Shown: in pieces, positions 11,728 to 50,817 of the stretch | Layout of the letters: every line of letters starts with the position of its first letter | Position numbering within the stretch: the stretch's first letter is position 1 | The notes under the pieces: model-generated | What the model was told of the DNA's origin: nothing | Database searches by the model: none | The model's input: the letters and a program-made list of their open reading frames with translations, nothing else | Made by a program: the position numbers and the translations under genes | From: Candidatus Nomurabacteria bacterium | Lineage (GTDB): Bacteria; Patescibacteriota; Minisyncoccia; Phycocordibacterales; UBA2100 | Length of the DNA: 64,000 nt | NCBI GenBank assembly: GCA_943356775.1 | Contig: CALRFU010000001.1 | Span: 7,203 to 71,202, forward strand | Reading direction: 5' to 3'

Positions 11728-12918
11728 ATGTCAGCGATGCATAAAGTAGAGGCAACTGCTTTGATTGTGAGCGTTCTACTCGCGCCATTCGTGCTTTCGG
11801 CTGCACAAGCCATTGATGCCGGATGCCGGGCGGCTACTCCGTCTGACCAGGCCCAACGCGCTGCCCGAGGAATACCGGAGACGTTTCAAGTCTGCCCAGG
11901 CGATGTACAAGCGCTCGGTATTGGGCAAAATTTCGAGCAGTGGTACGACCGGCTCAAGACCCAATCGCCTTGTAACAGAAATACGTGCACTCTGTCGTGT
12001 CGGACTCGCAATACAGGAGCACAAGTGTGTGGTCCGACGGCGACACGATGGAATTCGATCGGGTGTCATCCCAACAATAGAACCGCGATCTTCCCGACCG
12101 TTTCTCATGGATTCGCTGCGCACATTGAGCTGCTTCGCCGCTACTGCGGTGAGCGTGGACGCTGTACTATTGGAAGTGTTGTCCAACAGTGGACCGCAAC
12201 GGTTGGTGACCGACCGGCCTATGCTAACTTCGTTTCCAGAAACGCTGGCATTCCGGCGAATCAGGTGTATGACCCAAACGATATTGATCTGGTCGGAAGA
12301 CTTGCTCTCGCGATGTCGTGTTTCGAGGCAGGTTCCATGCCGTACAGCGCCGCCGAACTCAAGCAAGGCCTCGCTATGGCTGCGGGCGGAGCCAGAGTAC
12401 CCGTTCCTGCCAACGTCGGACAGTTGCTGGAAGAAAGTCTACAGGGAGGCTACGCCTCCAATCCGGGCTATTCGCCGAACTCTAGTCCGGGGAGCTGGGC
12501 GTATCCTCCCTCTAGTGCCAGTCAGAGCAATTACAGACCTCCACCTCCGCCGCCGATGCAACCGCTGATTCAATCACCATCTCGGCCGGAGCCCAAACCA
12601 GACCTGCCACTGACGCTTCCGCCGACTAATAATCTAGGCGCATCAGGAACGAACGTCCCATCTGCGTTACTCATCATCGCCCAGTCTCCACGGATTTCTC
12701 GTGGCGGCACAGCCCTTATCTCGTGGGTCTCGGTGGGGATGAAGCCCGATTCGTGTTCCGTCACACAAAACGGCTCCTTATTTGCGCGGGGGAATCAGGG
12801 CAGCAAAATATTTTCTTCGGCACTTACGGGTAGCCCAGGGTCAGCACGTGTCGTTCTGAGTTGCGTTTCGATCTCGGGTTCCACTCTTGAAAGAGACATC
12901 ACGATAACAGTTTTATGA
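11728..12918 (+). CDS. Secreted Cys-rich protein: phage virion/lysozyme-like domain, Pro/Ser linker, C-terminal Ig-like domain
   Basis: Signal peptide; FPTVSHGFAAHIELLRRY..TIGSVVQQW..YANFVSRNAG..MSCFEAG; paralog of 13244-15058. Confidence 0.65.
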   Translation: MSAMHKVEATALIVSVLLAPFVLSAAQAIDAGCRAATPSDQAQRAARGIPETFQVCPGDVQALGIGQNFEQWYDRLKTQSPCNRNTCTLSCRTRNTGAQVCGPTATRWNSIGCHPNNRTAIFPTVSHGFAAHIELLRRYCGERGRCTIGSVVQQWTATVGDRPAYANFVSRNAGIPANQVYDPNDIDLVGRLALAMSCFEAGSMPYSAAELKQGLAMAAGGARVPVPANVGQLLEESLQGGYASNPGYSPNSSPGSWAYPPSSASQSNYRPPPPPPMQPLIQSPSRPEPKPDLPLTLPPTNNLGASGTNVPSALLIIAQSPRISRGGTALISWVSVGMKPDSCSVTQNGSLFARGNQGSKIFSSALTGSPGSARVVLSCVSISGSTLERDITITVL

Positions 12919-13186: not shown

Positions 13187-13243
13187 ACATTGTTTTCAAC
13201 AGCAAGGGAAAAGTACGAGCTCAAGAAGGGTACAATGAACGCA

Positions 13244-15058
13244 ATGCGATTGGCGGCTCTATTTTTTGTTGCGCTCCTTTGTATCCTGCCCGCGGCACTA
13301 TTTGCAGCGGAGAAATTTGATCCGAAGGCGTATAACGGAAGTGACGACCAATGTCTGGATGAGAAGATTGTTATCACTAACGGGAAGGTGGGCACTCAAA
13401 AAGGTCGCACAGACACCGAACGATACAAAACCTGCAAAAATATCTCTGGTGGCTGTTCGCTCGCAAAGGAGAAGCTACAACCACCGGAATGCATTTGTGG
13501 AAAATTATACTACCCTCGCGAGGGAAAGAGTCCCGTCCCACTCGATAAATGCGATCCAGACATAAAAAAGAAGCTAGCGAAAGCGATGGCGGGAGGTATC
13601 GAGGGCATGGCCGCTTTTGCGACGCAGGAAAGGATAGCGGAGCGAATCGGGGAAATAGATGCATCGACGGCGGACGGCAGAGGTAAGCTCTCCCAGATAC
13701 TTCAGAGCTATGGAGTGACTAAAGCCGAGGCTGACGCGAAAGTGAACGACACAGATAAGGCCGCCGACGTACAGGCCCAGCTGCAAAAATTCGTCGGCAC
13801 ATCCGATACTGCTGAGGCAAAAAAAGTCGCGGACGACCTTGGACTCAAACTCAACGAAAACCTTACAGACGCGGTGCGCCTCGATCCAAAAAAGTACGAA
13901 GCAATTTTTTCCAAAGAAGAACTCGAGCGTGAGCAAATCGTCGTGCCGACGACCTTCCAAGAAGTCGTGCGGGGAGTAGTTGCTGGTACCCTCGCTCCTC
14001 TCTGCGGCAACTTGGGGGGATGTAGCGATGTTGCCTGTCAGAGCAATCCCGGCTCACTCACGTGTCGCACCAACAATCCCGGCGCCCTCACGTGGGCACC
14101 GTGGGAAGCAAAGTATGGCGGGCAGCCGTGTGGTGAGCGGAACAACACGGCTTGTTTTCCTAGTCTTGAGCATGGCCTTGCCGCAAAGATTGACCTCATT
14201 ACCGGCTCCAAATATCTCGGCGGTAGCAACAATACGATTCTCTCAATGCTGTGTAATGGATATGCTCCGAATTCGGACGGCAACAATTGCGGTTCTTATG
14301 CCACGTTCGTCCAGAATCAAACAGGCATCCCTATGAACCAAACCATCGACCCAAAGAATCCGGAACAAATAGGGAAGATAGCGATGGCGATGGCGCGTAT
14401 GGAAAACGGAAAATTCGTGCCGTTTACTCCCCAGCAGCTCGAAAATGCGATGGCCATGGTCTATGGCGGGACATTGCCCAATGGCACCCCGGGGTTCATA
14501 CCGCAAACAGCTTACGGCACGAATAATGGCAACGGATTCAACTCACCATTCAATTTTAGTTCTCCACCTTCGCCCACCAATGTAGGCTACGGCAGCCCGT
14601 TTGCAGGCACTTCTCAGGCTCCTGTCGCTCAAGCTTCGTACTCACAGCCACAGCCAACGCAGGCGGCGACACCTGTCTCGCAAACTATCGCGCAGCCAAC
14701 GTCTATTACTCAAACGCAAACGACCACCTCCGGCACGTCGAGCGTCGCCCAAAAGCTTCAACTAGCGCTCCAAGACGGGACGGGAACCACTGGTCAATCT
14801 CCGGCGACCGTCATCGCAGAGCCCAAAGATGTGACGAGAGGCAATCCGATTACTGTTGCTTGGACCAGCGTCGGCATGAGTGCAGACACTCCTTGTACGC
14901 TCCGAGCCAACTCGACCTTTATCGCCGAGGGTAATCAGGGCTCCAGGGTGGTGCCAACTACTGCGGCAACGCGAGTCGGCTCGCTCATCTTTACGCTCTC
15001 GTGCACCACCGCCTCAGGTACGAAATACCAAAGAACGGCGGCTGTTATGGTACGCTAG
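13244..15058 (+). CDS. Secreted Cys-rich protein: phage virion/lysozyme-like (NNPG) domain, S/T/Q/P linker, C-terminal Ig-like domain
   Basis: Signal peptide MRLAALFFVALLCILPAALFA; RTNNPGAL..FPSLEHGLAA..YAPNSDGNN..YATFV..MARMENG. Confidence 0.7.
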   Translation: MRLAALFFVALLCILPAALFAAEKFDPKAYNGSDDQCLDEKIVITNGKVGTQKGRTDTERYKTCKNISGGCSLAKEKLQPPECICGKLYYPREGKSPVPLDKCDPDIKKKLAKAMAGGIEGMAAFATQERIAERIGEIDASTADGRGKLSQILQSYGVTKAEADAKVNDTDKAADVQAQLQKFVGTSDTAEAKKVADDLGLKLNENLTDAVRLDPKKYEAIFSKEELEREQIVVPTTFQEVVRGVVAGTLAPLCGNLGGCSDVACQSNPGSLTCRTNNPGALTWAPWEAKYGGQPCGERNNTACFPSLEHGLAAKIDLITGSKYLGGSNNTILSMLCNGYAPNSDGNNCGSYATFVQNQTGIPMNQTIDPKNPEQIGKIAMAMARMENGKFVPFTPQQLENAMAMVYGGTLPNGTPGFIPQTAYGTNNGNGFNSPFNFSSPPSPTNVGYGSPFAGTSQAPVAQASYSQPQPTQAATPVSQTIAQPTSITQTQTTTSGTSSVAQKLQLALQDGTGTTGQSPATVIAEPKDVTRGNPITVAWTSVGMSADTPCTLRANSTFIAEGNQGSRVVPTTAATRVGSLIFTLSCTTASGTKYQRTAAVMVR

Positions 15059-21152: not shown

Positions 21153-24100
21153 ATGAAGTCCTACGAACACAAATCGATAGAAAAGAAGTGGGCAAAACGC
21201 TGGGAAAAAGACGGCCTCTACAAGACTAAGGATGTGGTAAAAGGCAAAGAGAATTTCAATCTTCTCGTCGAATTCCCGTATCCCTCAGGCAATCTTCACG
21301 TCGGACACTGGTACGCTTTTGCGGTGCCCGATATCCTCGCGCGGTTCCAGCGTATGCGGGGCAAAAACGTCCTGTATCCGATAGGTTTCGATGCCTTCGG
21401 TCTTCCGGCTGAAAACGCGGCCATCAAAAACAAACTTAACCCGCGCACGTGGACGCTGAGCAACATCGAGTACATGAAGAAGCAGATTCGCTCAATGGGT
21501 ACTTCATTTGATTGGTCGCGTGAAGTCGTGACCTGCGACCCTGCGTACTACAAGTGGACACAATGGCTCTTCCTTCAATTCTTCAAGGCAGGACTCGTCT
21601 ACCGCAAAGAGACGGCGGTGAATTGGTGTCTTTCCTGTAAGACGGTACTCGCCAATGAACAAGTTGTAAACGGAACATGTGAACGCTGTGACAGCGAAGT
21701 GGAGCAGAGGCAAATGCTCCAGTGGAATATCAAGATTACCGATTACGCGGACCGTCTTGTCGACGACCTCGATGCGCTTGATTGGCCGAAGGAGATAAAA
21801 GAATCGCAGAAAAATTGGATAGGCCGCTCCGAAGGTGCGGAGATAGATTTTCCGCTCGACCTCGGTATCAAATACAAGTATGTGCTTTTGCACGGCTTCG
21901 AAGGTGCCCCCGATATGCCCCGTTTCCATTTCTGGAAAGAAGAACTCGAAAAACTCGGCCATGAAGTAATCATCCCCGCTCTACCAGACACAAAGAATCC
22001 TTCCGAGGAAGAACAAGTCGCGGCCGCGCTCGCGGCTACCGAGTACGACGAACGCACCGTGCTCTTCGGGCACAGTCTGGGAGCCGTTGTCGCGCTCAAG
22101 GTCCTGGAGCGTCTCCAGAAGCCCATCGGACGCCTTGTTGTGGCGGGCGGATTTATAGACCCTGAGTTCAAGGATAAGCGGAGGAATTTCGAAAAGCGAT
22201 TTTCCTGGAAGTTTGACGTCAAGAAAATAAAATCGAACACCCCCGTGATTCACGTGTTGCATGAGACAAAAGACTACGGGGTGAGCGACAAGCAATTGCA
22301 ACGTCTGGAGGATTTCCTCGGTGTCAAAGCAACGCACATAGAAGGCGAAGCGCCTCACTTCACGGGACAGAAAGAGCGCTCAGTACTCATGTGGCTTCGT
22401 GCGACCATCCGGGTCTTTACGACGCGTCCCGACACCCTCTATGGCGCCACGTATCTCGTACTTGCTCCGGAGCATCCTCTCCTTCGCCAAGGCTTCGAAG
22501 GGCAAGCGTGGCTGAGCACTCTTCAAAATAAAGACGAGGTTAAGAAATATATCGAGTCATCGAAGAAGAAAACGGAAATGGAGCGTCTCGCGCTGAAGAA
22601 GAAGACGGGTGTTCAGTTGAAAGCAATTACGGCGATTAACCCCGCAACGGGCAAAGCAATTCCCGTATACATTGCCGATTATGTGCTCGGACACTATGGT
22701 ACGGGCGCCGTCATGGGCGTGCCCGCGCACGACGAGCGGGACAACGAATTTGCAAAGAAGTACGAACTCCCGATTATTGAGGTGATAGAACCTGCAGTGA
22801 CGCAGAGAGCGGGGCTCGATGCCGTCCGCGAAGAAGAGCCGTTCACAGAGCGTCCCGCGATTCTCGCCGTCGTCAAACACTGGTCCGAAGATACCTACCT
22901 GTGCCTTGCGTATAAAGCCAATGACGCCCGTGGATTTATTTCGGGCGGCGTAGATGCGGGGGAAGACTTCCTGGTTGCAGCTCAGAGGGAAATCCGCGAA
23001 GAAAGCGGATACAAGAATGTCGTTTTGGTTAAAAGCCTCGGAAGCGTTATCCATAGTAAATTTTATAGCCCGACCAAGCAGAAGAATCTTTCCGCGCACT
23101 TCACACCGTTTTTGTTTGAATTAAAAGACGGGGAACAGGAGGAAGTATCCGAGAGGGAGAAAAGGATTCAAGAGATGTGTTGGATGAAGAAAGAAGAAGT
23201 TGCCAATTTTGTAAACCGCGACGACTCCAGGATTGCATGGCGACGTGCCATGGGCATGGATGTATATGACGGCGAAGGTACGTTAGTGAATTCGGGTGAC
23301 TTCAACGGACAGTCGACTGAGAGTGCGCGGGAGGCAATCACGGAGAAACTTGGTACGGTAAAGACCACCTACAAACTACGTGATTGGATAGTTTCGCGCC
23401 AACGGTACTGGGGAGTTCCGATACCAATCGTTCACTGCGCGTCCTGCGGTCCTGTCGCGGTCAAAGACAGCGAGCTTCCGGTAAAGCTCCCGGAGGTGAA
23501 AGATTATCTCCCCGAGGGCAGCGGGAAATCGCCGCTCGCCAAGGCAAAGAAGTGGGTGCAAGTGAAATGCCCGAAGTGCAAAGGAAAAGCCGAGCGCGAG
23601 ACCGACACCCTCGACACGTTCGTCGATTCTTCCTGGTACTACCTGCGCTATACGGATCCGAAGAACAAAAAGAAATTCGCCGACGCAAAGAAACTGCAGA
23701 GCTGGATGCCCGTCGATTTGTACTCGGGTGGGGCTGAGCACACGACCATGCACGTCTTGTATTCGCGTTTCTGGCACAAAGCGCTCTTTGACCTCGGTCT
23801 TACCAAAGAGCCCGAGCCGTACACGCGCCGCATGAATCGCTCTCTCATTCTCGGGCCGGACGGGCAGAAGATGAGCAAATCCAAAGGCAATGTCATCGAT
23901 CCCGATGAGGTGGTGGGGCGCCTGGGAGCGGATACGGTGCGTATGTATCTCGCGTTTATCGGTCCTTATAACGAGATCAATACATATCCGTGGAGTCCTG
24001 ACAGCGTCGTCGGCGTCCGCCGCTTCTTGGAGCGTGTCTGGCGCGCCCAGGAGTATGTAGGGGAGGCAGATAGTCCCGCGCTTGAGAATCTTCTCCATAA

Positions 24101-24560
24101 GACGATTAAGAAAGTCGGGGAAGATATCGCCACAATGAAATTCAACACTGCCATCAGCACCCTTATGATATTCCTCAATGCCTTGGAAAAAGAAACCCTT
24201 CGACAGGCTCAGGGTAAAAAGACACTCGGTAAAGCGCAGTGGGAGAACTTCTTGAGACTCCTTGCGCCGTTTGCTCCGCACATCACGGAAGAATTGTGGG
24301 CTGCGGGAGGGCAAAAAAAATCGGTGCACAAAACAGTCTGGCCCGAATACGATGCATCAAAACTTAAAGAAGAAACGATATCGATAGCCGTACAAATCAA
24401 CGGAAAGACACGCGCAGAAGCTCAGGTGTCCGGTGACGCTGACAAGAAGACACTTGAAAAAGCCGCTCGCGAGGCCGCTGCCACGCGCTTGGAAGGTAAG
24501 AAAATCCTGCGCACGATTATAGTGACCGGCAGACTCGTTAACTTTGTCGTGGAAGAATAG
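21153..24560 (+). CDS. leuS: Leucine--tRNA ligase with inserted alpha/beta-hydrolase and NUDIX domains
   Basis: PYPSG.LHVGH, TTRPDT, KMSKSKGN; 1135 aa with extra GHSLG and GG..REIREESG domains. Confidence 0.97.
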   Translation: MKSYEHKSIEKKWAKRWEKDGLYKTKDVVKGKENFNLLVEFPYPSGNLHVGHWYAFAVPDILARFQRMRGKNVLYPIGFDAFGLPAENAAIKNKLNPRTWTLSNIEYMKKQIRSMGTSFDWSREVVTCDPAYYKWTQWLFLQFFKAGLVYRKETAVNWCLSCKTVLANEQVVNGTCERCDSEVEQRQMLQWNIKITDYADRLVDDLDALDWPKEIKESQKNWIGRSEGAEIDFPLDLGIKYKYVLLHGFEGAPDMPRFHFWKEELEKLGHEVIIPALPDTKNPSEEEQVAAALAATEYDERTVLFGHSLGAVVALKVLERLQKPIGRLVVAGGFIDPEFKDKRRNFEKRFSWKFDVKKIKSNTPVIHVLHETKDYGVSDKQLQRLEDFLGVKATHIEGEAPHFTGQKERSVLMWLRATIRVFTTRPDTLYGATYLVLAPEHPLLRQGFEGQAWLSTLQNKDEVKKYIESSKKKTEMERLALKKKTGVQLKAITAINPATGKAIPVYIADYVLGHYGTGAVMGVPAHDERDNEFAKKYELPIIEVIEPAVTQRAGLDAVREEEPFTERPAILAVVKHWSEDTYLCLAYKANDARGFISGGVDAGEDFLVAAQREIREESGYKNVVLVKSLGSVIHSKFYSPTKQKNLSAHFTPFLFELKDGEQEEVSEREKRIQEMCWMKKEEVANFVNRDDSRIAWRRAMGMDVYDGEGTLVNSGDFNGQSTESAREAITEKLGTVKTTYKLRDWIVSRQRYWGVPIPIVHCASCGPVAVKDSELPVKLPEVKDYLPEGSGKSPLAKAKKWVQVKCPKCKGKAERETDTLDTFVDSSWYYLRYTDPKNKKKFADAKKLQSWMPVDLYSGGAEHTTMHVLYSRFWHKALFDLGLTKEPEPYTRRMNRSLILGPDGQKMSKSKGNVIDPDEVVGRLGADTVRMYLAFIGPYNEINTYPWSPDSVVGVRRFLERVWRAQEYVGEADSPALENLLHKTIKKVGEDIATMKFNTAISTLMIFLNALEKETLRQAQGKKTLGKAQWENFLRLLAPFAPHITEELWAAGGQKKSVHKTVWPEYDASKLKEETISIAVQINGKTRAEAQVSGDADKKTLEKAAREAAATRLEGKKILRTIIVTGRLVNFVVEE
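22479..22503. repeat. REP-like element CTCCTTCGCCAAGGCTTCGAAGGGC in frame in leuS
   Basis: 25 of 25 nt identical to 63055-63079 in ung; CCTTCG/CGAAGG arms. Confidence 0.85.
24195..24215. repeat. REP-like element ACCCTTCGACAGGCTCAGGGT in frame in leuS (TLRQAQG)
   Basis: One mismatch to the intergenic copy at 7358-7378. Confidence 0.8.
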
Positions 24561-40764: not shown

Positions 40765-42157
40765 GTTTCTTTTCAGGATTTATCCGGATACCGAGTTCGG
40801 CGAGCTGCTCCGCTGTAAGCTCTTTCGGAGCTTTCATGACGGCGGTCTGTCCGCCGCGCGTCATCGGAAACGCCTGGACTTCGCGCAGCTGCGATTCGCC
40901 CGTGAGATTCATGACGAGGCGCTCTACTCCAAGTGCAATACCCCCGTGCGGCGGTACGCCGAATCCGAAGGCGGTGAGCATGTGTCCGATGCGTCCCTGT
41001 ATTTCCTCTTCGCTGTAGCCCATGACTTCATATGCGGCCTTCAGAATCTCAGGTTTGTGCGCGCGGATGCTGCCTCCTCCGGCTTCGTATCCGTTGCAGA
41101 CCAAGTCGTACTGCGTGGTTAGAATCTCGCCGACGTCTTTCTTCGCGAGGAGTTGTTCTACGTGTTCAGGTACCGGCATTGAAAACGGATTGTGAGTGAA
41201 AGTCCATGCGCCATCGGAGGTCTTCTCGAAGAACGGGAATTTGTGCACCCATGCGTATGCCATGACGCCGTTCTCCTTGTCCTCCGGTGTACGCAAATCG
41301 AATTTGTCCGCGCCAAATTTTTCCGTTGCTTCCGCGTACGTGAAGCGTGGAAATGGTTTTTCTTTTATGGTGAAGCCCATTCCCTCGACGGTAGTCGTAA
41401 TCATCTCTTCGACAGTGCGCATGACGTCTTCTTGTGTCACGAAAGACATCTCGATATCTATCTGTGTGTGTTCAAATCCGCGGTCTGCACGAAGATCTTC
41501 ATCACGCACTGCACGCGCTATCTGGAAATAGCGTTCGAAGCCACCGACCATGAGGAGTTGTTTGTATTGCTGGGGTGATTGCGGGAGTGCATAAAACTTG
41601 CCGGGGTTGAGACGCGAGGGTACGACGAAATCGCGTGAACCCTCGGGAGTCGATTCTGTGAGAAGAGGCGTCTCTATCTCGGTGAAGAGTTTTCCGAAAA
41701 GATATTCTCTGCAGCGTCGTACGAGTTCGCTGCGAAGTCTGATGTTGCGTTGCATACGTTCGCTGCGCAGGTCCAGATAGCGGTGTGCAAGACGGGTCTC
41801 TTCTCCGATGCCCGCGGTATCCTCGTTGACTTCAAACGGTAAGACAGCAGCGGGACTCAAGACCTCTATTGATTCTATGAGCAGTTCAATGCCGCCATTT
41901 ATCTTGTCTGCTTGTGCGTTCTTACTCGGCCGCTCCTGGACGGTCGCAGTGACGGCAACGACGGATTCCCGGGATGTATTCTTCGCTGTTTCCATTGCCG
42001 CACCTCCGGGAATCACAAGACCTTGCACCATGCCCGTCATGTCTCTAAAATCAAAAAAGACCATCTTGCCCTGGTCGCGGCGTACCGATACCCAACCCTT
42101 GATGAGCACCGACTCCCCTTTGTGCTCCTGCAAGTCTTTGATGAATGTTCTTTCCAT
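40754..42157 (-). CDS. aspS: Aspartate--tRNA ligase (short, no GAD domain)
   Basis: OB fold, RYLDLR, TPEGSRDF, LPQSPQQYKQ, PPHGGIALG. Confidence 0.93.
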   Translation of the reverse strand: MERTFIKDLQEHKGESVLIKGWVSVRRDQGKMVFFDFRDMTGMVQGLVIPGGAAMETAKNTSRESVVAVTATVQERPSKNAQADKINGGIELLIESIEVLSPAAVLPFEVNEDTAGIGEETRLAHRYLDLRSERMQRNIRLRSELVRRCREYLFGKLFTEIETPLLTESTPEGSRDFVVPSRLNPGKFYALPQSPQQYKQLLMVGGFERYFQIARAVRDEDLRADRGFEHTQIDIEMSFVTQEDVMRTVEEMITTTVEGMGFTIKEKPFPRFTYAEATEKFGADKFDLRTPEDKENGVMAYAWVHKFPFFEKTSDGAWTFTHNPFSMPVPEHVEQLLAKKDVGEILTTQYDLVCNGYEAGGGSIRAHKPEILKAAYEVMGYSEEEIQGRIGHMLTAFGFGVPPHGGIALGVERLVMNLTGESQLREVQAFPMTRGGQTAVMKAPKELTAEQLAELGIRINPEKKHGQ

Positions 42158-42158
42158 A

Positions 42159-43094
42159 TTAAATACTTACCCCAACTTTCTGCCGCACATCAACCATTTT
42201 CTTTTCCGCCTGCTCGCGCGCACGTGCCGCTCCGTCTCGCAAGATTTCTTTGACATCTGCATCCGAGAGACTCGCACGTTTCTCGCGCATCGGACTGATC
42301 ATGGCTTCGATATCTTCGACGAGTGCATCTTTGAGCGCCTTGTATTTTCCTTTGTGCTCCGTATAGAGTGCATCGAGCTCTTCTTCGCTCTTGAACAGGC
42401 GGTGGATGTTGTAGACATTTTCTGGCCTATCCCCTGTCGAGTCTGTCACAATGCTCATCACGGCTTTCTGAATTTCTTCTTTTGTCCCGAAGAGCGGAAT
42501 GGTGTTTCCGTAGCTCTTGCTCATCTTCTTGCCGTCGGTACCCGGTACGACCGCGACTGATTCCAGGATTTTTTCCTGCGGCGTTTTGAACGTTTCGCCG
42601 AATGCTGTATTGAATTTAGCGGCCGCTTCGCGTGCGTATTCCACGTGCTGACGCTGATCTGCGCCCACGGGCACAATGTCCGTGTCATACAGCAAGATGT
42701 CTGCGGCCATGAGCATCGGATAGGTGAAGAGTCCGGCATTCGCTTCGAGGCCTTTTGCGACTTTGTCTTTATATGCATGTGCCTGCATCAGAAACGGCAC
42801 GGTGACGAGGCAATCAAATATCCAGGCGAGCTCTGCATGCTGTGAGACGGATGATTGCTGAAATATGATCGTCTTCTTTGGGTCCATCCCGACCGCAACA
42901 TAATCACGAACGACCTCGGGGATGTTCTTCCGCAGCTGCTCAGTATCTTTGAGGGTAGTGAGTGCGTGATAATCGGCAATCATGACCAATCCATCAGCGT
43001 CTTTCAGCAATTCCACGGTCTGTTTGAGAGCGCCGAGGTAGTTGCCAATGTGGAGCGATCCAGAGGGCTGAAGACCGGTAAAAAGTCGTTGCAT
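42159..43094 (-). CDS. trpS: Tryptophan--tRNA ligase
   Basis: QPSG.LHIGNYLG, YPMLMAADIL, KMSKSY. Confidence 0.97.
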   Translation of the reverse strand: MQRLFTGLQPSGSLHIGNYLGALKQTVELLKDADGLVMIADYHALTTLKDTEQLRKNIPEVVRDYVAVGMDPKKTIIFQQSSVSQHAELAWIFDCLVTVPFLMQAHAYKDKVAKGLEANAGLFTYPMLMAADILLYDTDIVPVGADQRQHVEYAREAAAKFNTAFGETFKTPQEKILESVAVVPGTDGKKMSKSYGNTIPLFGTKEEIQKAVMSIVTDSTGDRPENVYNIHRLFKSEEELDALYTEHKGKYKALKDALVEDIEAMISPMREKRASLSDADVKEILRDGAARAREQAEKKMVDVRQKVGVSI

Positions 43095-43126
43095 CGGCCT
43101 ATAATACCAGAAAAATGAGCCCCTTT

Positions 43127-44632
43127 TTATAGAGCGGGGAATTCCACGATAAAGCGCGAACCCCTGCCTGCCCCCTCTGATTCCGCCGATATTTTGCCGC
43201 CGTGGGCTTCCACGACCTGCTTGGCGATGAAGAGGCCGTAGCCTGTCGAATGCACGTTGACCTTGATGGAATCTTTGCCGCGGCCGCCTTCGGCGAAGAG
43301 ATTGCTCATGTCTTCTGGGGTGATACCGACACCGCTGTCTTTGACTGAAAAGTGGATTTTTCCATCTCCGTCGGAGAGCTCGACTTGAATTGTGCCGGTG
43401 GGGGTGTATCTGATTGCATTATCGATGAGGTTGCGTATCACATGCTCGCGAATTTTTTCTTCGTCACCGTTTAACTTGTATTCCCCTTCCGCAATATGTA
43501 CTTCGAGCTCAATATTTTTTGCATGCGCTGCTGCTTGTTGCTCGCTCACAATCGTCTGGACCGCAGAACGGAAATCAAATGCGGCTTTGTTGAACGTGAC
43601 CGTACCTTTTTTTAGATTTGAGGCACTTAGAATATTCATGACTGTCGCCACACCTTTGCGCACATCGGTGAGTGCCGCTTTCGACATTGTTTTCAATTCA
43701 TCTGATATTACTCCGTAATCCCCTTCCGCAATTGCGGCGAAGCCCGCCTCGCTCTTCGTGAGGTATCCCTTAATCTCGTGACTAATGAAGTGGAGGAGAT
43801 TATCCTGCTGTTCGTTTGCAATCTCCAGCTCTCTCGAAAGTTTTGCGAGCATCTCCGCACGATGCTTCCAGATTAAAATAAGAGATATTGCCAAGATTGC
43901 AATGATGGCTATCAAACTAGCGATGAATTTCAGGAACGGATAGAGTGTTTGCGTCGTAACCGTGAAAAAGTCGTCGGCTTTAATATCAGTCGCCAAAATT
44001 GCAACGGTGTTTCCGTTGTCGTCTTTGATTGGCGCATAGCCAGTGAGGACTTGCCCATAGGCGTCTTCATAGAGCTCGGCTACAGTCAAAGGTCCGTTGT
44101 ATGCTTCAAACGCTTCTGGTATATGATCAGCGGGGTCGGGATTTGGTTGTCCTGGCCACTGCAATTTATCTGCTCCATCGGGTTCGACAGCACCGTCTTT
44201 ATTTGAATCAACGTTATTCGTCGGGTTGTCATCAGTGTTTGCATACGGATTGATTGACTCTGCGTCCGCCACAAACTCCATTTCTGCCGGATTACTCTTT
44301 ACTTTACGAATGATATACATGAAGACGATGTCCGAATTAGCATCTTTTGCCTTCTTGAGTTGCGTGACGACTTTTGCCCACTCCGGCTTGACCCAATCCT
44401 CCTCGGCTTGCAGTACTTCAAGATCTTTTGCATCTATGTTTGCTGCTTGCGTTATAGAAATAGACAACAGTCTTTCCCGCAGATTTTCTGTGAGAAGATT
44501 AATGGTGTGGTCGTACAAAAACCAAGAGGCTCCAACGGCAATTAAAACCGCAAGGAGCGCGATGATGCTGCCCAACCACACCAAAGCTCTAAACCGTAGG
44601 GTTTTCGTATTCTTTTGGGGACTTGCTCTCAT
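43127..44632 (-). CDS. Membrane sensor histidine kinase
   Basis: 2 TM helices, SHEIK H-box, NLIDNA, DSGVG, GYGL. Confidence 0.92.
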   Translation of the reverse strand: MRASPQKNTKTLRFRALVWLGSIIALLAVLIAVGASWFLYDHTINLLTENLRERLLSISITQAANIDAKDLEVLQAEEDWVKPEWAKVVTQLKKAKDANSDIVFMYIIRKVKSNPAEMEFVADAESINPYANTDDNPTNNVDSNKDGAVEPDGADKLQWPGQPNPDPADHIPEAFEAYNGPLTVAELYEDAYGQVLTGYAPIKDDNGNTVAILATDIKADDFFTVTTQTLYPFLKFIASLIAIIAILAISLILIWKHRAEMLAKLSRELEIANEQQDNLLHFISHEIKGYLTKSEAGFAAIAEGDYGVISDELKTMSKAALTDVRKGVATVMNILSASNLKKGTVTFNKAAFDFRSAVQTIVSEQQAAAHAKNIELEVHIAEGEYKLNGDEEKIREHVIRNLIDNAIRYTPTGTIQVELSDGDGKIHFSVKDSGVGITPEDMSNLFAEGGRGKDSIKVNVHSTGYGLFIAKQVVEAHGGKISAESEGAGRGSRFIVEFPAL

Positions 44633-44665
44633 AACGCTTTCCTCAATATAGTACCCTCATCTGGT

Positions 44666-46531
44666 CTAGACGTCTAATAGCCTCAATACTTTTGTTTTGT
44701 CTATATCCAAGAGGAACTGTGACAGGCGTGGTCCCGTATGCTTTCCCAAGAGTAATTGATACACATTTTCGAAGAATGCCCGTTGGCGGGTTTGGTTTTG
44801 ATGTTCCGTTGCTCCAGGCTTCACGACGAGCGCGTACAGCAACGTTGTAAGTTTTTCCGGAGACATTTTAGAGCGACGACGTACGAGCTTGGAGAGAGCA
44901 CGAATTGATTCCAGAGCTGCGTGACTCAATTCCGTTATATGCTCAACATTTGGCTGTGCCAGCAGATGATGAGTGTGTTTCTCGTCAACTGTCACGTAGC
45001 GTGTCCCCTTCACTTTTTTGAGAGAGTGCATATCCACATAGGTGACGTCCGCAGCAGATGCTTCTCTGTGCTCCTCCGTTCCTCTGGACGTTAACTGTAG
45101 AAGTTTCTCAACGCCCTTTTCCTGCACCCGCGTACATTCGAGCAATTTTTGTATACGCGCTTGAAGTGATTGACCGTGCATGAGCGGTTCTACAATCTCC
45201 TCAAATATATCGCGCTGCGGCAATGTCGGTTTGCAAATAAGTTTTCCATTAATACTTACGCTTGAAGAGTTGCGACCGCACCCCCCGTACGGTTGCGTTC
45301 CTCGTTCTATACCTACATCATGTGGGTTAGCGTTGTGCAGCACGGAGGCTTTATCATGAAGCACCTTTCCGTTGAATAACCGATCCACGAGGCTCTCAAT
45401 GTATGCACTGGCTCCATAGAGCGAGATGTACATCGCGTTCTGTGCATAATGAGGATTCTCGAAATACAGAGCGAGTTCCGAATCGTTCTCATATTTTTGC
45501 ACGAAAATAATTGGAGCAAATATTTCAGCGAAGTTTCCGCCTTCTGTAAGGGGTTTACAAATAATTGTAGGTTCTATGATGGCATCATGGGTTCGAATTA
45601 TCCCTTGGGTAGATTGATCAATCCACGCTTTATGGTGAACGAGAAAATCCTGTACCCGCACGAGATCCTTTGGATCACTATTGGGACCGACCCGACATAA
45701 TTTGTCGGCATATTCTCCGACATGGATTGTACGGATTTGCTCACGCAACAACCGCAGGAAGTCTGAATATACATCCGCATGAACGAGCGTTGCGTTCGGA
45801 GCTGCACAGTCTTGCCCTTGATTATAAAATTGCAGAGAAATAATCGCATCTACTGCTTTTTGCACGTCAGCGTTCTTACTAACAACGAAAGGATTATGCC
45901 CCGATCCATTTGAGATGAAGAGCGTGCGGTGGTCAAAAATGAGTCGCAGCTGATCTGCATGAGCAGAAGTTCCTGTAAAAATTACGACATCCGTACCGGG
46001 CAGAGTTTCTTCAGTTTTTGGATTGATACGTAGGGCAGAGCGCTTACGCAAGAACTCAAGGCGCGTGTCGTGGGAAACCGTTATGTTGGGAAACCGTGTG
46101 TGCACCTCGAGTAGTGCGAGCATTTTGGGGAAAAAATGCCGCATGCCGTGTGGTATCCGGAAGTGCACCTTGCTCGCCATAAGAGATGGTATGACAACGA
46201 AACAGGTAAAGGCATAGAGAGGTTGATTTCTCGGTAGAAATGCAGCGACTTCATTGACTCGTAAACGGAAGTACTCATTGTTGTCCTTAATGTTCTGCAA
46301 GAGATCAAGTGTGCGCTCGGTTTCGTCTTTTACTACTTCATAACTCTCATATTCAAGCAGTATTTCTGTCAGCGCTTCAAATTTACTTTCAATTAATTCT
46401 GCCCATGACCGCGTCTGGTCCTCAATGTAGAAAGTCGAAAGTGGTGTATAGGGAGGATATTTTCCGCTAATCGAAGTAATGTGCGTTGTACGGGTACGTT
46501 TAGGAGTGACGACCGCATTGGCAGTTTTCAT
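44666..46531 (-). CDS. Aldehyde dehydrogenase-family protein fused to a class I LysRS-like anticodon-binding domain
   Basis: LPRNQPL, FTGTS, GSGHNP, NQGQDC, EIFAPI, PYGG; C-terminal FFENVYQLLLGKHTGPRL. Confidence 0.75.
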   Translation of the reverse strand: MKTANAVVTPKRTRTTHITSISGKYPPYTPLSTFYIEDQTRSWAELIESKFEALTEILLEYESYEVVKDETERTLDLLQNIKDNNEYFRLRVNEVAAFLPRNQPLYAFTCFVVIPSLMASKVHFRIPHGMRHFFPKMLALLEVHTRFPNITVSHDTRLEFLRKRSALRINPKTEETLPGTDVVIFTGTSAHADQLRLIFDHRTLFISNGSGHNPFVVSKNADVQKAVDAIISLQFYNQGQDCAAPNATLVHADVYSDFLRLLREQIRTIHVGEYADKLCRVGPNSDPKDLVRVQDFLVHHKAWIDQSTQGIIRTHDAIIEPTIICKPLTEGGNFAEIFAPIIFVQKYENDSELALYFENPHYAQNAMYISLYGASAYIESLVDRLFNGKVLHDKASVLHNANPHDVGIERGTQPYGGCGRNSSSVSINGKLICKPTLPQRDIFEEIVEPLMHGQSLQARIQKLLECTRVQEKGVEKLLQLTSRGTEEHREASAADVTYVDMHSLKKVKGTRYVTVDEKHTHHLLAQPNVEHITELSHAALESIRALSKLVRRRSKMSPEKLTTLLYALVVKPGATEHQNQTRQRAFFENVYQLLLGKHTGPRLSQFLLDIDKTKVLRLLDV

Positions 46532-46535
46532 AGCA

Positions 46536-46901
46536 TCAAACTTCAGTTTTAAGAGAAATTTGCAAAAGTATGATTCCCACGAGCACGAACGCTAATCCGG
46601 CGTATTGGTACATAGAAAGTTTGCTCCACTCCTGAAACAAGACCAACCCCATCATGACAGTACCCAGCGTGAGGAGCGCATCAATCGTTCCCGATCCTAC
46701 CGCCACGCCGATCCGAGAAGTAACAAGCCCGAAGGTGATAAAAACGAATGGAGAGACAATCACAACGGCCAAGAGTAAAAGGGAAAATTTGTTGTCTTTA
46801 CTTGCCCACGTTGCAGCCAGATAATTAGCAAAAAGCGCCACAGCAACAGCGCCAATTACATATAGCCAGATCTCCAGTTTTTCCATCACGGGAGATACCA
46901 T
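46536..46901 (-). CDS. Small 4-TM DMT/SMR-like transporter
   Basis: 121 aa, four TM helices, GLVLFQE..YQYAGLAF..GIILL. Confidence 0.7.
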   Translation of the reverse strand: MVSPVMEKLEIWLYVIGAVAVALFANYLAATWASKDNKFSLLLLAVVIVSPFVFITFGLVTSRIGVAVGSGTIDALLTLGTVMMGLVLFQEWSKLSMYQYAGLAFVLVGIILLQISLKTEV

Positions 46902-47280
46902 ATCACAACATTATTGTTTGCAAAGGGGTAAGAAATGCTCCAGACCAAGCATCCACCCAAGCGTGGCAATCGGTGCAATAAGGAGTTTTTGCGACATATA
47001 CAAGCAGTAAGAATAAGTACACCACAGGTCCAATTTCCTACAAGCACCTGGTGTGCATAAGATACTCATCAACCCGCTTCGCCTTATAATCGAGTGATTA
47101 TATGAAAGACATGCAACATCTTATCCTCTAGCGATTTCTATGTCAGGGATTATCTTTACCGAAGGAAGGACTGCTGCCTTTGAGTAGACGGGGCGGCTAA
47201 TTTTTTGAATCCATGTGTCGTTCTATTTCTAAATACATATCCGCACCCCCTTTGCCAATGAGTGTAAGCGGCACAGCTGA

Positions 47281-47769
47281 TCAACTTCGGACTGCAGCGA
47301 GAACGACGTAAGAGCCTACTAGCCACCAGAAACGGTAGGCCACTCCAAACACGGTGTGTACCTGATCGCCGAAGTGCCATAGTACATCAAGGCTCGGCAC
47401 TTGGAGCCATACGATAAGGAGCACCGCTGTTGCGGCTAATCCCACGACAAGAGCTTGAATGGGTCCGATACCGTTAGAGAATGTGAATATGAGTCGGTGT
47501 GTAGCGATAAACAAGAGGACTGCTACCGCACCGAACATTGCAAGTTGAGCAACGGGAGACGTGAATTGTGCGAATAGACCACCGAGGAAGAATGCCTGTG
47601 GGAGTTGTTGCATTACGAGGAGTGATGCGGGTAAACTGAGCACCAACGCCGTTGCGCGGGCGGGACCAGTACGCATTGCGTCGAGGGAGGTGAGAACCGC
47701 AAAGGCGAAGATGAGTATCCAATCCATTGGCCAATGAGCCAGTATCGAAGAAATCGATGATAGATCCAT
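47281..47769 (-). CDS. Hypothetical membrane protein
   Basis: About 5 hydrophobic helices; TATACT 6 nt upstream of the ATG. Confidence 0.7.
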   Translation of the reverse strand: MDLSSISSILAHWPMDWILIFAFAVLTSLDAMRTGPARATALVLSLPASLLVMQQLPQAFFLGGLFAQFTSPVAQLAMFGAVAVLLFIATHRLIFTFSNGIGPIQALVVGLAATAVLLIVWLQVPSLDVLWHFGDQVHTVFGVAYRFWWLVGSYVVLAAVRS

Positions 47770-47814
47770 CGGTACAGTATACGTGCTCTGGAGACTGTCG
47801 CGGCTGCGAGGTGT

Positions 47815-48882
47815 TTACAGACCTTCTTGTCGCAATTTTTCGATGAGCTCCCGTGCATTCTTCGAGAGTTTCTTGGGGAATTCAATATCTACGCGGACAA
47901 GCAAGTCGCCGCGAGCGCGTCCCGCCGGTACTCCTTTGCCTCGTACGCGAATGACCTCACCGTGCGAAATGCCCGGAGCGACACTCAGGGTCTCTTCACC
48001 ATCAAGAGTCGTGATGCGGTATTCTCCACCCAGAAGTGCGTCTGAGAGTTTGATAGGAAGTGAGGTAAGGAGATTGTTGCCTTCGCGCGAGAATTTTGTA
48101 TCGGCTTTAATATGCAATTTCACGTAGAGGTCGCCTGCGCCGCCGCCTTGCACCGCTTCTCCGCGACCGGGCATACGTATCATTTCTCCGTCTTCTACAC
48201 CCGCGGGTACCACGATGTGTATTTCTTCCTGGCGTTTACGGACACCCGCTCCCTGGCAGGCTTCGCAGAGTGTTTCGGGTATCTGTCCCCGTCCGTGGCA
48301 TCGCGGGCACGGACGTGCCGAGGTAAACGTCCCGAAGAATGAATTACGAGATTCACGGATCTCGCCTTTTCCGTTGCAGCTTGAGCAGGTGATCATTTTC
48401 GAACCTTTCTTCGCCCCTGACCCGTCACAGGTATCGCAGGCGCTCGTCTTGGAAAGTAATACACGACGCTCTGTACCGAATACGGATTCACGGAACGAAA
48501 GTTCTATATCTATTGAAATGTCGCGGCCGCGCTTCGCACGCGCTTGCCCGCCGCCGAATACATCGCCGAAGATGTCGCCGAGGTCGAATTCGACGCTGCC
48601 CCCTTGCCCGCCGAATCCTTGGAAGTTTGAGAAATCGAATCCGCCGAAGCCTCCCTGCTGCGGGCCTCCCCCTCCGGCAAACGTTTTGCCGTAGGTATCG
48701 TATTCCGCACGCTTCTTTTTATCGGAAAGTACCGAGTAAGCCTCACTCACCTCTTTGAATTTAGCCTCGTCACCGCCTTTTTTGTCGGGATGATACTTGT
48801 GCGCCAATTTCCGGAAAGCTTTTTTGATATCCTCGTCAGTCGCCGTCTTTGGAATACCAAGTAAATCGTAATAGTTTTTCAT
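47815..48882 (-). CDS. dnaJ: Chaperone DnaJ
   Basis: HPD, G/F region, four CxxCxGxG repeats. Confidence 0.98.
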
Positions 48883-48920
48883 AACGAGGAATTATAGTAC
48901 TCGCAAAGTGTTTACAAAGC

Positions 48921-48941
48921 AAAAGCCGCTCTGAAGCGGCT
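48921..48941 (-). terminator. Probable intrinsic terminator after dnaK
   Basis: AGCCGCT/AGCGGCT stem followed by a T-run on the minus strand. Confidence 0.6.
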
Positions 48942-48948
48942 CTTGTCT

Positions 48949-50817
48949 TTATTGCTTCGGGGCTTCTTCTGGGGGCGTTTGTTCGTCTTTAGGTGCTTCT
49001 GGAGGCGGTGTCTGTTGATTTTGATTCATGGCCTGACCGATTTTGCTCATCTCTGTGGAAAGCGCTTCGGCCGCAGACTTGATAGCTGCTGCGTCGCTAC
49101 CACCTCGAGCTGCTTTAGCTGCATCTATTTTCTCCTGTACACCTTTCTTGATATCTTCGCTCACCTTATCGCCGTGCTCTTTGAGCGCCTTCTCGGCGGC
49201 GTAGACGACTTGGTCGGCCCCGTTTTGTGCCTCCACGAGCTCGCGCTTCTTTGTGTCGGCATCGGCGTTGACCTCGGCGTCTTTGCGCATCTTTTCTACC
49301 TCAGTATCAGAGAGACCGGATGTCGCTTCAATGCGGATGGATTGTTCTTTGTTTGTTGATTTATCTTTGGCCTTCACCGAGAGAATTCCGTTGGCATCGA
49401 TGTCAAAAGAGACTTCGACTTGTGGCGTACCGCGCGATGCCGGCGGAATGCCGTCGAGGTTGAAGCGGCCGAGCGATTTGTTGTCGGTAGCCATGGGGCG
49501 CTCACCTTGGACGACGTGAATTTCTACAGACGGCTGGTTGTCGGAGGCGGTCGAGAATGTCTGTGAGCGCGAGGTTGGAATCGTGGTATTGCGCTCGATG
49601 AGCTTTGTCGCGACGCCGCCCATGGTCTCGATACCGAGCGAAAGTGGAATGACGTCGAGCAAGAGCACGTCTTTGACGTCTCCCTGCAGAATGCCGCCCT
49701 GAATCGCTGCGCCGATTGCGACGACTTCGTCGGGATTCACGCTGAGATTCGGCTTTTTACTAAAGAAATCTTCCACAGCCTTTTGCATCGCCGGCATGCG
49801 TGTCTGTCCGCCGACGAGCACGACTTCGTTGATGTCCGCTACCTTGAATGGCGACGCTTCCACAGCGCGCTTGGTGATTGCCATTGCGCGGTCTAGAAAC
49901 TCGCGGGAGAGCTCCTCAAGCTTTCCGCGTGTCATCTTAATGAGAAGGTGCTGCGGACCCGCATCGGTCGAGGTGATGAATGGAATGTTTATCTCGGTCT
50001 CAAGTGCTGTCGAGAGTTCAATCTTGGCCTTCTCTGCGGCCTCATCCAAGCGTTGGCGCGCAAGCGGGTCTTTGCTCACATCCACACCTGACTCTTTTTT
50101 GAATTCATCGGCTATCCAGGTCATTATCTTCTGGTCGATATCCTTGCCGCCCAAGTGCGCGTCGCCGTCGGTCGAACGTACCTCTATCACGTCGTCTCCG
50201 ACTTCGAGCACTGAAATATCGAATGTTCCACCGCCGAAATCGAATACCACTATCTTCTCGTCTTTCTTTTTGTTGAATCCGTATGCGAGCGCCGCAGCAG
50301 TCGGCTCGTTGATGATGCGCTTTACGTCGAGACCTGCAATTTTGCCGGCGTCCTTTGTAGCCTGTCGTTGTGAGTCATTGAAATATGCCGGTACGGTGAT
50401 GACCGCCTCGGTGATAGTCTCCCCGAGTCTGGCTTCGGCATCCTGCTTCAGCTTCTGCAATATCATCGCAGAGAGTTCTTCGGGACGGTACCATTTGTCG
50501 GCCATCTTAATCTCAATTCCGCCGTTTGCGGACTTCTGTGTCTCAAACGGAACCGCCGCCCGGTCCTTGGCCGCCGCAGGTTCGTCAAAATTATGCCCGA
50601 TAAAACGCTTGATTTGATATATGGTGTTCTTCGGATTGGTGACGCCCTGACGCTTTGCAAGTAGCCCAACGAGTTTCTCTCCCGTTTTCGATAGTGCAAC
50701 GACCGAGGGGGTCGTGCGTGCACCTTCGGCGTTCTCGATTATCTGAGGTTCCCCTCCTTTTACGATAGCTATTGCTGAATTTGTAGTTCCCAAATCTATT
50801 CCGAGTATTTTTGACAT
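48949..50817 (-). CDS. dnaK: Chaperone DnaK
   Basis: [25 protein letters not shown]. Confidence 0.99.

Follow-up and report, generated by a model that had tools for sequence, protein, structure and literature searches.

Glutamyl-tRNA reductase (HemA/GluTR) is, to our knowledge, the only aminoacyl-tRNA reductase known. In this enzyme, a Cys attacks the aminoacyl-tRNA to form a thioester, which is reduced with NAD(P)H to an aldehyde, and the protein carries its own tRNA-binding domain. The acyl reductases and acylating enzymes with the aldehyde dehydrogenase (ALDH) fold receive their acyl groups from protein thiols, phosphate or CoA, not from tRNA, while the Vibrio CqsA/CqsS pair is a synthase-receptor signalling unit. 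Here, a stretch of 64,000 nt from a Candidatus Nomurabacteria genome (assembly GCA_943356775.1, contig CALRFU010000001.1, positions 7,203 to 71,202; hereafter the window) was analyzed, in which one gene encodes a protein, P0001, that joins an ALDH domain lacking the usual general-base Glu to the anticodon-binding domain of a class I lysyl-tRNA synthetase (LysRS). Judging from sequence and predicted structure, P0001 is probably a reductase of lysyl-tRNA (Lys-tRNA).

The fusion family, and the unit that it forms with a small membrane protein gene and a sensor kinase gene, are real, conserved and apparently undescribed. The original prediction did not recognise that the kinase is part of the unit, nor that this fusion belongs to a broad family with several other forms. 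Titles and the beginnings of abstracts, mostly outside subscription journals, gave no description of the P0001 family. In the main text of a paper on quorum-sensing genes in CPR and DPANN (PMC7567580), the terms lysyl, aldehyde dehydrogenase, polyamine, cadaverine, histidine kinase and decarboxylase have no occurrence, and no such enzyme is described in the available portions of PMC13149037 and PMC8658869.

ALDH domain of the fusion protein

The fusion gene and its parts are located in the window as follows.

44666..46531, minus strand: ALDH-fold and class I LysRS anticodon-binding fusion (P0001, 621 aa), proposed Lys-tRNA reductase
45182..46456, minus strand: ALDH-fold domain, residues 26-450 (Pfam and structure matches)
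45908..45910, minus strand: codon of Asn208, at the general-base Glu position of hydrolytic ALDHs (alignments)
45806..45808, minus strand: codon of Cys242, at the catalytic nucleophile position, after the invariant Asp241 (alignments)
44669..44974, minus strand: helical class I LysRS-type anticodon-binding domain, residues 520-621 (profile and structure matches)

P0001 is a member of the ALDH superfamily, having the fold, the catalytic Cys, the oxyanion Asn and the cofactor-binding Gly and Glu (N102, G187 and E336). It matches the Pfam family Aldedh (PF00171) with an E of 3e-25 (89 bits against a cut-off of 23), and its top NCBIfam model is aminobutyraldehyde dehydrogenase (NF010000), with 65 bits against a cut-off of 615. 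An AlphaFold model, built from an alignment of 44 sequences (mean pLDDT 88), matches ALDHs over residues 14-454, the best of them with a Z of 30.6 and a root-mean-square deviation (rmsd) of 3.0 over 394 residues. The hydrolytic ALDHs score a Z of about 30, followed by LuxC (22.8), a PduP-type enzyme (4c3s, 20.6) and glutamyl-phosphate reductase (19.2); 1t90 is also among the top fold matches (Z 29.7). Every ALDH motif quoted in order by the original prediction is present.

Residue conservation was counted in the 120 best of 369 homologues, in which N102, G187, N208, D241, C242, E336, F338, H404 and E409, as well as the acidic E62, E65, D69 and E70, are found in 120/120, and H212 in 119/120. 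By alignments to 4dng and 3iwj, counted back from the conserved Pro, Asn208 occupies the position of the general-base Glu; a one-residue gap in HMMER would place Gly209 there, and neither of the two is Glu. In the wider family, this column is Asn in 205 of 220 ALDH domains and Glu in one, with Cys242 in 219/220. Thus, at the sequence level, P0001 lacks the general-base Glu before the GGxxP turn of hydrolytic ALDHs, as had been read from the altered ELGGKxP motif, although another acid in the structure (E336 or E409) may take its place. The loss of the Glu base is shared with the CoA-acylating ALDHs (PduP/AdhE type), which, according to the available part of PMC4762007, resolve the thioester by transfer and in which the Glu position is taken by a small hydrophobic residue and not by Asn. 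These enzymes use CoA and have a conserved His next to the catalytic Cys, H387 in Cphy1178; H404 and H212 of P0001 are candidates for its counterpart. The aminoaldehyde dehydrogenase 1wnb has an Asp before the catalytic Cys, as in P0001. Together, the best match to aminobutyraldehyde dehydrogenase, the Asp before the Cys and the invariant acidic residues argue for an amine substrate.

LysRS-type tail

The tail of P0001 is a class I LysRS helical anticodon-binding domain. Two class I LysRS models match the last 144 aa, NF001968 with an E of 7e-7 and TIGR00467 with an E of 1e-5, each scoring well below its whole-protein cut-off, and with a profile of residues 520-621, residues 446-517 of the class I LysRS 1IRX are the sole significant hit among the five PDB matches listed (E 3e-10; the next, E 3.8). 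Residues 519-621 of the model superpose on 1IRX 429-521 with a Z of 13.0 and an rmsd of 2.1 over 93 residues. F587, Y591, G600 and P601 are conserved in 120/120 homologues and position 602 is R in 98/120; these align with F487, Y491, G500, P501 and R502 of 1IRX, which we take to be the anticodon-contacting patch. The resemblance to class I LysRS noted at the start is thus borne out by profile and structure alike, and a wrong C-terminal fold, which would have spoken against it, is excluded. A glutamyl-tRNA synthetase (GluRS) type of tail was rejected, with no GluRS among the five PDB matches listed. A chimera or single-assembly artefact, the other concern raised beforehand, was also rejected, since the 120 best homologues, from several sources, all carry both domains.

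The Rossmann catalytic domain of class I LysRS (PF01921) has no match in P0001 or the 44 aligned members, and no match over the cut-off in the host genome. The host genome encodes a class II LysRS over the cut-off and two tRNA-Lys genes. A split LysRS with its catalytic half elsewhere was considered and rejected, as none was found by a genome search. Because the class I catalytic domain is missing and the host LysRS is of class II, P0001 would be unable to charge tRNA and would need the Lys-tRNA of the host.

The wider family and its fusions

The named close homologues of P0001 are mostly from Patescibacteria, and carry automatic names such as aldehyde dehydrogenase family protein, lysyl-tRNA synthetase class 1 or hypothetical. 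A profile search of 50%-identity representatives gave 313 proteins at E up to 1e-30. Domains were scanned in 100 of the 150 listed representatives, picked mainly for extra length, so the counts are not family frequencies. LysRS parts are fused to the ALDH in 16 of these 100, in either order and from both LysRS classes; PF01921 was found in 12, the OB anticodon domain in four and a nucleotidyltransferase in 19, with a few having GNAT, aminotransferase, PLD, ankyrin or other domains. A full class I LysRS follows the ALDH in L036, L039 and L049 (the latter aligned to 1IRX over its whole length, E 8e-86) and precedes it in L052 and L062, whereas in L045 the two are encoded by adjacent genes. The extra region of P0190 has class II LysRS models as its best NCBIfam matches (E 3e-61). 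In P0123, P0128 and P0137 the recognisable ATP-site motifs have been lost and the anticodon domain retained. In a FastTree phylogeny of the 220 ALDH domains (midpoint root, mixed support), the tail-only forms are found at several places among full and degenerate fusions. The best indication of Lys-tRNA as the substrate is that the tRNA-binding part was retained while catalysis was lost, and that the fusions involve LysRS of two unrelated classes.

Additionally, distant stand-alone members were found on Bacillus and Streptomyces plasmids, with the Cys motif kept and the Glu absent. In the three plasmid loci viewed, the gene shares an operon with genes for a thiamine-diphosphate enzyme and, two to three genes away, an adenylate-forming enzyme, a context that fits a family reducing activated carboxylates. 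These clusters (L171:7956-16320, L172:9908-16122 and L173:9860-14394) also include a ketosynthase-like gene in two cases. Other branches were observed as well. A Glu-less ALDH is fused to a minimal nucleotidyltransferase at either end (P0183, P0189, P0193, P0203 and 15 more), and an N-terminal domain of about 90-110 aa without a Pfam match precedes the ALDH in many members (L039, L042, L045, L047, P0129, P0157 and others). LysRS-ALDH fusions of about 940-980 aa, often with a major facilitator superfamily (MFS) gene, are present in L050-L080 from Pseudomonas, Xenorhabdus, Photorhabdus, Brenneria, Saccharothrix and relatives; we know of no product of this two-gene cluster.

The same data bear on whether P0001 could be a conventional hydrolytic aminoaldehyde dehydrogenase that acts in amine catabolism, its tRNA-binding tail being a relic. 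Its best sequence and fold matches are indeed hydrolytic, aminobutyraldehyde dehydrogenases included, and the invariant E336 or E409 could serve as the base. Such an enzyme is nevertheless very improbable, given the near-complete absence of Glu at position 208, a tail whose invariant residues are kept in all 120 homologues, and fusions to both LysRS classes that are hard to see as an accident.

Linkage with an SMR-like gene and a sensor kinase gene

On the same strand, the fusion gene is flanked by the two other genes of the unit.

46536..46901, minus strand: small multidrug resistance (SMR)/drug-metabolite transporter-like small membrane protein, 121 aa, proposed exporter (start possibly Met at 46886)
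43127..44632, minus strand: proposed receptor, a 501-aa sensor histidine kinase that has one extracytoplasmic Cache/PDC domain
43943..44509, minus strand: Cache/PDC sensor domain, approximately kinase residues 42-230 (predicted model)

The 121-aa gene upstream is separated from the fusion open reading frame (ORF) by 4 nt and the kinase follows 33 nt downstream, in agreement with the coupling described in the original prediction. The three genes have a GC content of 46-48%, compared with 51.5-53.6% for aspS, trpS, dnaJ and dnaK, so that the AT-richer islet next to trpS was also recovered. Eighty genome loci were examined, in 78 of which the ALDH ORF was called. In the 44 loci with tail-only fusions, the kinase is directly downstream in 34 and within the locus in 38, while the SMR-like gene is directly upstream in 21; in Patescibacteria, the fusion gene is usually found between these two. 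A long N-terminal region is present in 21 other loci, from Pseudomonas, Xenorhabdus, Photorhabdus, Brenneria, actinomycetes and others; an MFS gene lies downstream in 13 of them and the sensor in none. A reciprocal search gave 78 metagenome loci with the sensor, including 53 at >=300 bits with >=400 bp upstream; the fusion is directly upstream in 41 of these 53 strong loci, against 0 of 18 weaker loci with equal upstream DNA. The unit is rare, with 0 of 300 other genomes of the class matching the ALDH or the sensor profile; within the family, the ALDH was found in four of 150 genomes and the sensor in five, with both side by side in two.

SMR transporters (PF00893) have a membrane-embedded Glu in helix 1. 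The 121-aa protein has no significant Pfam, NCBIfam or PDB match, and language-model scores of 0.95-0.98 relate it to clusters with PF00893 on 13-39% of their members; its helix 1 has no conserved Glu, and its D76 is near-invariant.

Outside domain of the kinase

The modelled outside domain of the kinase (pLDDT 90) is a single domain of about 190 residues, with single PDC domains as its best matches (WalK, Z 13.7; CitA, Z 13.3). The L044 kinase has no Pfam sensor family and the window kinase has only a weak sCache_3_3 match (E 0.15); neither the sensor alignment nor the SMR alignment had a match in PDB profile searches. The outside domain is the conserved part of the kinase, and unusually so, with a mean identity over 55 pairs of 58% for the sensor against 61% for the linked ALDH. 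D123, D155, Y188, D190 and D216 are invariant in the 63 ALDH-linked sensors, three decarboxylase-linked sensors (described below) and 16 distant sensors. According to the available part of bioRxiv 2023.04.06.535858, the amine and amino-acid Cache motifs have aromatic residues and a final Asp in common, and the amine motif is without the carboxyl-binding Arg. By eye and without superposition, Y188, D190 and D216 resemble the common aromatic and Asp positions given there, and the single sensor domain of the kinase differs from the double Cache domain of dCache_1AM.

The same Cache sensor was also observed in one to three copies, after a common unannotated N-terminal region, in proteins of 540-1016 aa (L138:517-2850, L141:4074-7109, L143:217-2601, L145:2781-5093, L008:3275-6304 and L028:8862-11912); the L138 protein has no Pfam or NCBIfam family.

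The tight linkage to one kinase family would also be expected if P0001 were a cytoplasmic sensor of redox state or of the charging of tRNA(Lys), controlling the kinase through direct contact and catalysing little or nothing. In 55 linked pairs, the identities of ALDH and sensor are indeed correlated (r 0.49, Mantel p 0.001), though co-inheritance alone gives the same result. Such a role is highly unlikely, as the catalytic and cofactor positions are all invariant, the kinase is conserved in its outside domain, many family members are without such a kinase, and a transporter travels with the enzyme.

Replacement of the fusion by a decarboxylase

In L102, L162 (G391) and L163 (G421), an EamA transporter and an Orn/Lys/Arg decarboxylase precede the same kinase, replacing the fusion. 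In the latter two, from same-genus genomes, this unit occupies the same slot between dnaJ and trpS as in the window.

L102:859-4860: alternative EamA/decarboxylase/Cache-kinase unit
L162:3842-7749: alternative EamA/decarboxylase/Cache-kinase unit
L163:4187-8088: alternative EamA/decarboxylase/Cache-kinase unit

The decarboxylase is a wingless form of 483-485 aa (PF01276, E 9e-54 and 1e-46). Its sensors are 59% identical to that of the window and group with the ALDH-linked sensors in a quick tree. A loop insert with two Cys was observed in them, and is also present in the ALDH-linked L019. Residues 199 and 164 are Phe in the three decarboxylase-linked sensors, while they are Tyr in 63/63 and 61/63 of the ALDH-linked ones, respectively. 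Lysinal and cadaverine both carry two amines five carbons apart. Since the two differ by the C1 oxygen, the loss of two hydroxyls is what product sensing predicts, and from these three related sequences we infer that the change may reflect it.

Because a decarboxylase of basic amino acids replaces the enzyme beside the same kinase, the reduction of Lys-tRNA fits best among the three activities offered by the original prediction for a tRNA-directed oxidoreductase, which itself gained independent support from the LysRS fusions; charging from an aldehyde and sensing of tRNA fit less well. The charging option belongs to an oxidative acyl transfer, in which an aldehyde would form the Cys thioester and pass to tRNA or to the amine of Lys-tRNA, yielding a charged tRNA without ATP or an N-acyl-lysine. 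A missing Glu fits either direction (available part of PMC4762007) and engineered amide-forming ALDHs are among the top fold matches of P0001, but aldehyde charging would be redundant where intact LysRS fusions already make Lys-tRNA, a conserved aldehyde-making gene is absent from the unit, and a plain decarboxylase can take the place of the enzyme. We regard this transfer as quite unlikely.

A second alternative keeps the reduction of Lys-tRNA and the export of an amine, and differs on its use: the product would be a host-cell effector, a defence compound or a pH or osmotic solute, and the kinase would sense lysine or environmental amines. The gammaproteobacterial and actinobacterial members with a long N-terminal region (a full LysRS in L052 and L062), with their frequent MFS gene and no sensor, look like such a minimal metabolite cluster, and decarboxylase-transporter pairs under a sensor are known from acid resistance. 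Against this stand the invariant acids of the sensor (D123, D155, D190 and D216), an amine Cache motif described as having no carboxyl-binding Arg (bioRxiv 2023.04.06.535858, available part), and the Tyr-to-Phe changes, which track the enzyme swap as expected for product sensing. A non-signalling product of this kind seems unlikely.

Besides these, distant sensors adjoin genes for S-adenosylmethionine decarboxylase, arginase, an arginine-dihydrolase-like enzyme, an NNMT-family N-methyltransferase or a fold-III decarboxylase, the last accompanied by a relative of the SMR-like gene. In L136, L137, L138, L139, L143 and L148, distant sensors were observed beside amine-enzyme genes and a gene for a Cys-bearing protein of 294-313 aa; these loci are possible further amine-signal units.

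Proposed pathway

Here it is proposed that the tail of P0001, identified as an anticodon-binding domain, would bind tRNA(Lys) charged by the class II LysRS of the host, and that Cys242 would attack the aminoacyl ester, freeing the tRNA and holding the lysyl group as a thioester. By analogy with the chemistry of acylating ALDHs and GluTR, this thioester would escape hydrolysis, since Asn replaces the Glu base, and its reduction with NAD(P)H would yield lysinal (2,6-diaminohexanal). Cyclisation, dimerisation or further reduction of lysinal may follow. The SMR-like protein may export the cationic product or a derivative of it. Outside the cell, the acidic Cache domain, whose fold and linkage are described above, may bind the product and signal to a response regulator encoded elsewhere. 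While the enzyme step is probable, a make-export-sense circuit of the three genes with P0001 as its synthase is about an even proposition. More tentatively, it is possible, if somewhat doubtful, that a lysine-derived amino-aldehyde, which the ALDH-fold enzyme would make directly from Lys-tRNA, serves Patescibacteria, as such or after cyclisation, dimerisation or reduction, as a diffusible signal of their own making, with the dedicated Cache kinase as its reader.

Several observations weigh against this proposal. Profile and fold place the ALDH domain of P0001 nearer to the hydrolytic ALDHs than to LuxC, PduP-type enzymes or glutamyl-phosphate reductase, and the fusions to nucleotidyltransferase, GNAT, aminotransferase and PLD domains indicate that not every family member need use tRNA. 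The spending of charged tRNA would look costly for a lysine-scavenging cell. Regarding the linkage, the adjacent fusion is absent in 12 of the 53 strong kinase loci and six of the 44 fusion loci have no sensor within the examined stretch; several loci are near-duplicates of one another, and because the sensor profile derives from neighbours of these same loci, the forward counts are partly circular. A response regulator is absent from the unit, with three receiver matches elsewhere in the genome, two of them over the cut-off. The swap comprises three loci with one or two origins, and two independent origins were not established (a single origin has an approximately unbiased test p of 0.10). 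Furthermore, a smaller tree puts L162 and L163 outside the remaining sensors, no longer nested, Lys and Arg decarboxylase models score alike for the swapped enzyme, all far under cut-off, and G380 has the decarboxylase and EamA genes with no match to the sensor.

If the proposal holds, a second, lysine-specific aminoacyl-tRNA reductase with the ALDH fold would define a new class of enzymes and connect the translation pool to small molecules by a route not seen before. It would also be an undescribed way of making a chemical signal, the output of which would be tied to the pool of charged tRNA. The make-export-sense unit would then offer a concrete, testable way to study how the uncultured Patescibacteria symbionts detect one another or their hosts. 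In Pseudomonas, Xenorhabdus, Photorhabdus and actinomycetes, which are culturable, members of the enzyme family would produce metabolites that are as yet undescribed. Full LysRS-ALDH fusions are present in culturable bacteria, for example in Pseudomonas sp. GM80 (L052), and the decarboxylase swap points to candidate ligands.

Genomic setting of the locus

The source genome has 811 kb in 14 contigs and is 98% complete. The three genes of the unit lie on the minus strand between dnaJ-like and trpS-like genes.

42159..43094, minus strand: gene resembling trpS (named from sequence), flanking the variable slot downstream
47281..48882, minus strand: upstream flank, a 162-aa membrane protein gene and a dnaJ-like gene (named from sequence)

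The interval between dnaJ and trpS (window 43095-47280; also L162, L163 and L165) was observed to be a variable slot, with different accessory genes in related genomes; the trpS-like flank is common to the window, L004, L162 and L163. There was no Rfam match in window 42000-49000 at E up to 1. The promoter-like sites number six against 6.4 expected, and the terminator-like sites eight against 4.4 expected (sd 1.8), from which no inference was made. A phage or plasmid origin of P0001 was considered and rejected, with no match in 72,556 plasmids at E 1e-30 or in 50,697 phages at E 1e-10. Similarly, a blastn search of the Xenorhabdus gene region against an E. coli collection gave no match.

Elsewhere in the window, two paralogous, secreted-looking proteins rich in low-complexity sequence are encoded at 11728-12918 (396 aa) and 13190-15058 (622 aa), with an internal region and a C-terminal domain in common. 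A leucyl-tRNA-synthetase-like ORF at 21153-24560 (1135 aa) is beyond the usual length and has apparent hydrolase- and Nudix-like inserts, as read by eye. In the same genome, ARAGORN assigns a tRNA-Ile with a TAT anticodon, unusual in bacteria, at G000:C9:8774-8845.

Comparison with known systems

The closest parallel in chemistry is GluTR, which P0001 would resemble in the proposed reaction and does resemble in carrying a tRNA-binding domain. The two differ in fold: no GluTR family was found in P0001 by Pfam and the GluTR fold was not recovered, P0001 having instead the ALDH fold and a tRNA domain from LysRS. The acyl group would also be different, being the alpha-carboxyl of lysine, and the product seems to be exported and not directed to tetrapyrrole synthesis. 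Among proteins with the ALDH fold, LuxC, glutamyl-phosphate reductase, the PduP type and methylmalonate-semialdehyde dehydrogenase have, like P0001, a catalytic Cys and no Glu base (PMC4762007, available part), and the acyl reductases and acylating members share with it the pairing with a carboxylate-activating partner. The aminoaldehyde dehydrogenases (NF010000; 1wnb, 6c43, 3iwj) are similar in being the best sequence matches, in their acidic substrate region and, for 1wnb, in the Asp next to the Cys; P0001 differs from them by its score far below the model cut-off, the lack of the Glu base and the extra tRNA-binding domain. With class I LysRS (1IRX, PF01921) it shares the conserved anticodon-binding domain, but it is without the Rossmann catalytic domain and cannot charge tRNA.

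As for the unit, the amine receptors of the dCache_1AM type also have a Cache-type sensor with conserved Tyr and Asp, whereas the sensor of the unit is a single Cache with an acidic loop insert. Units of the CqsA/CqsS type likewise place an enzyme gene beside a dedicated membrane kinase; P0001, as the proposed synthase, would instead draw on aminoacyl-tRNA.

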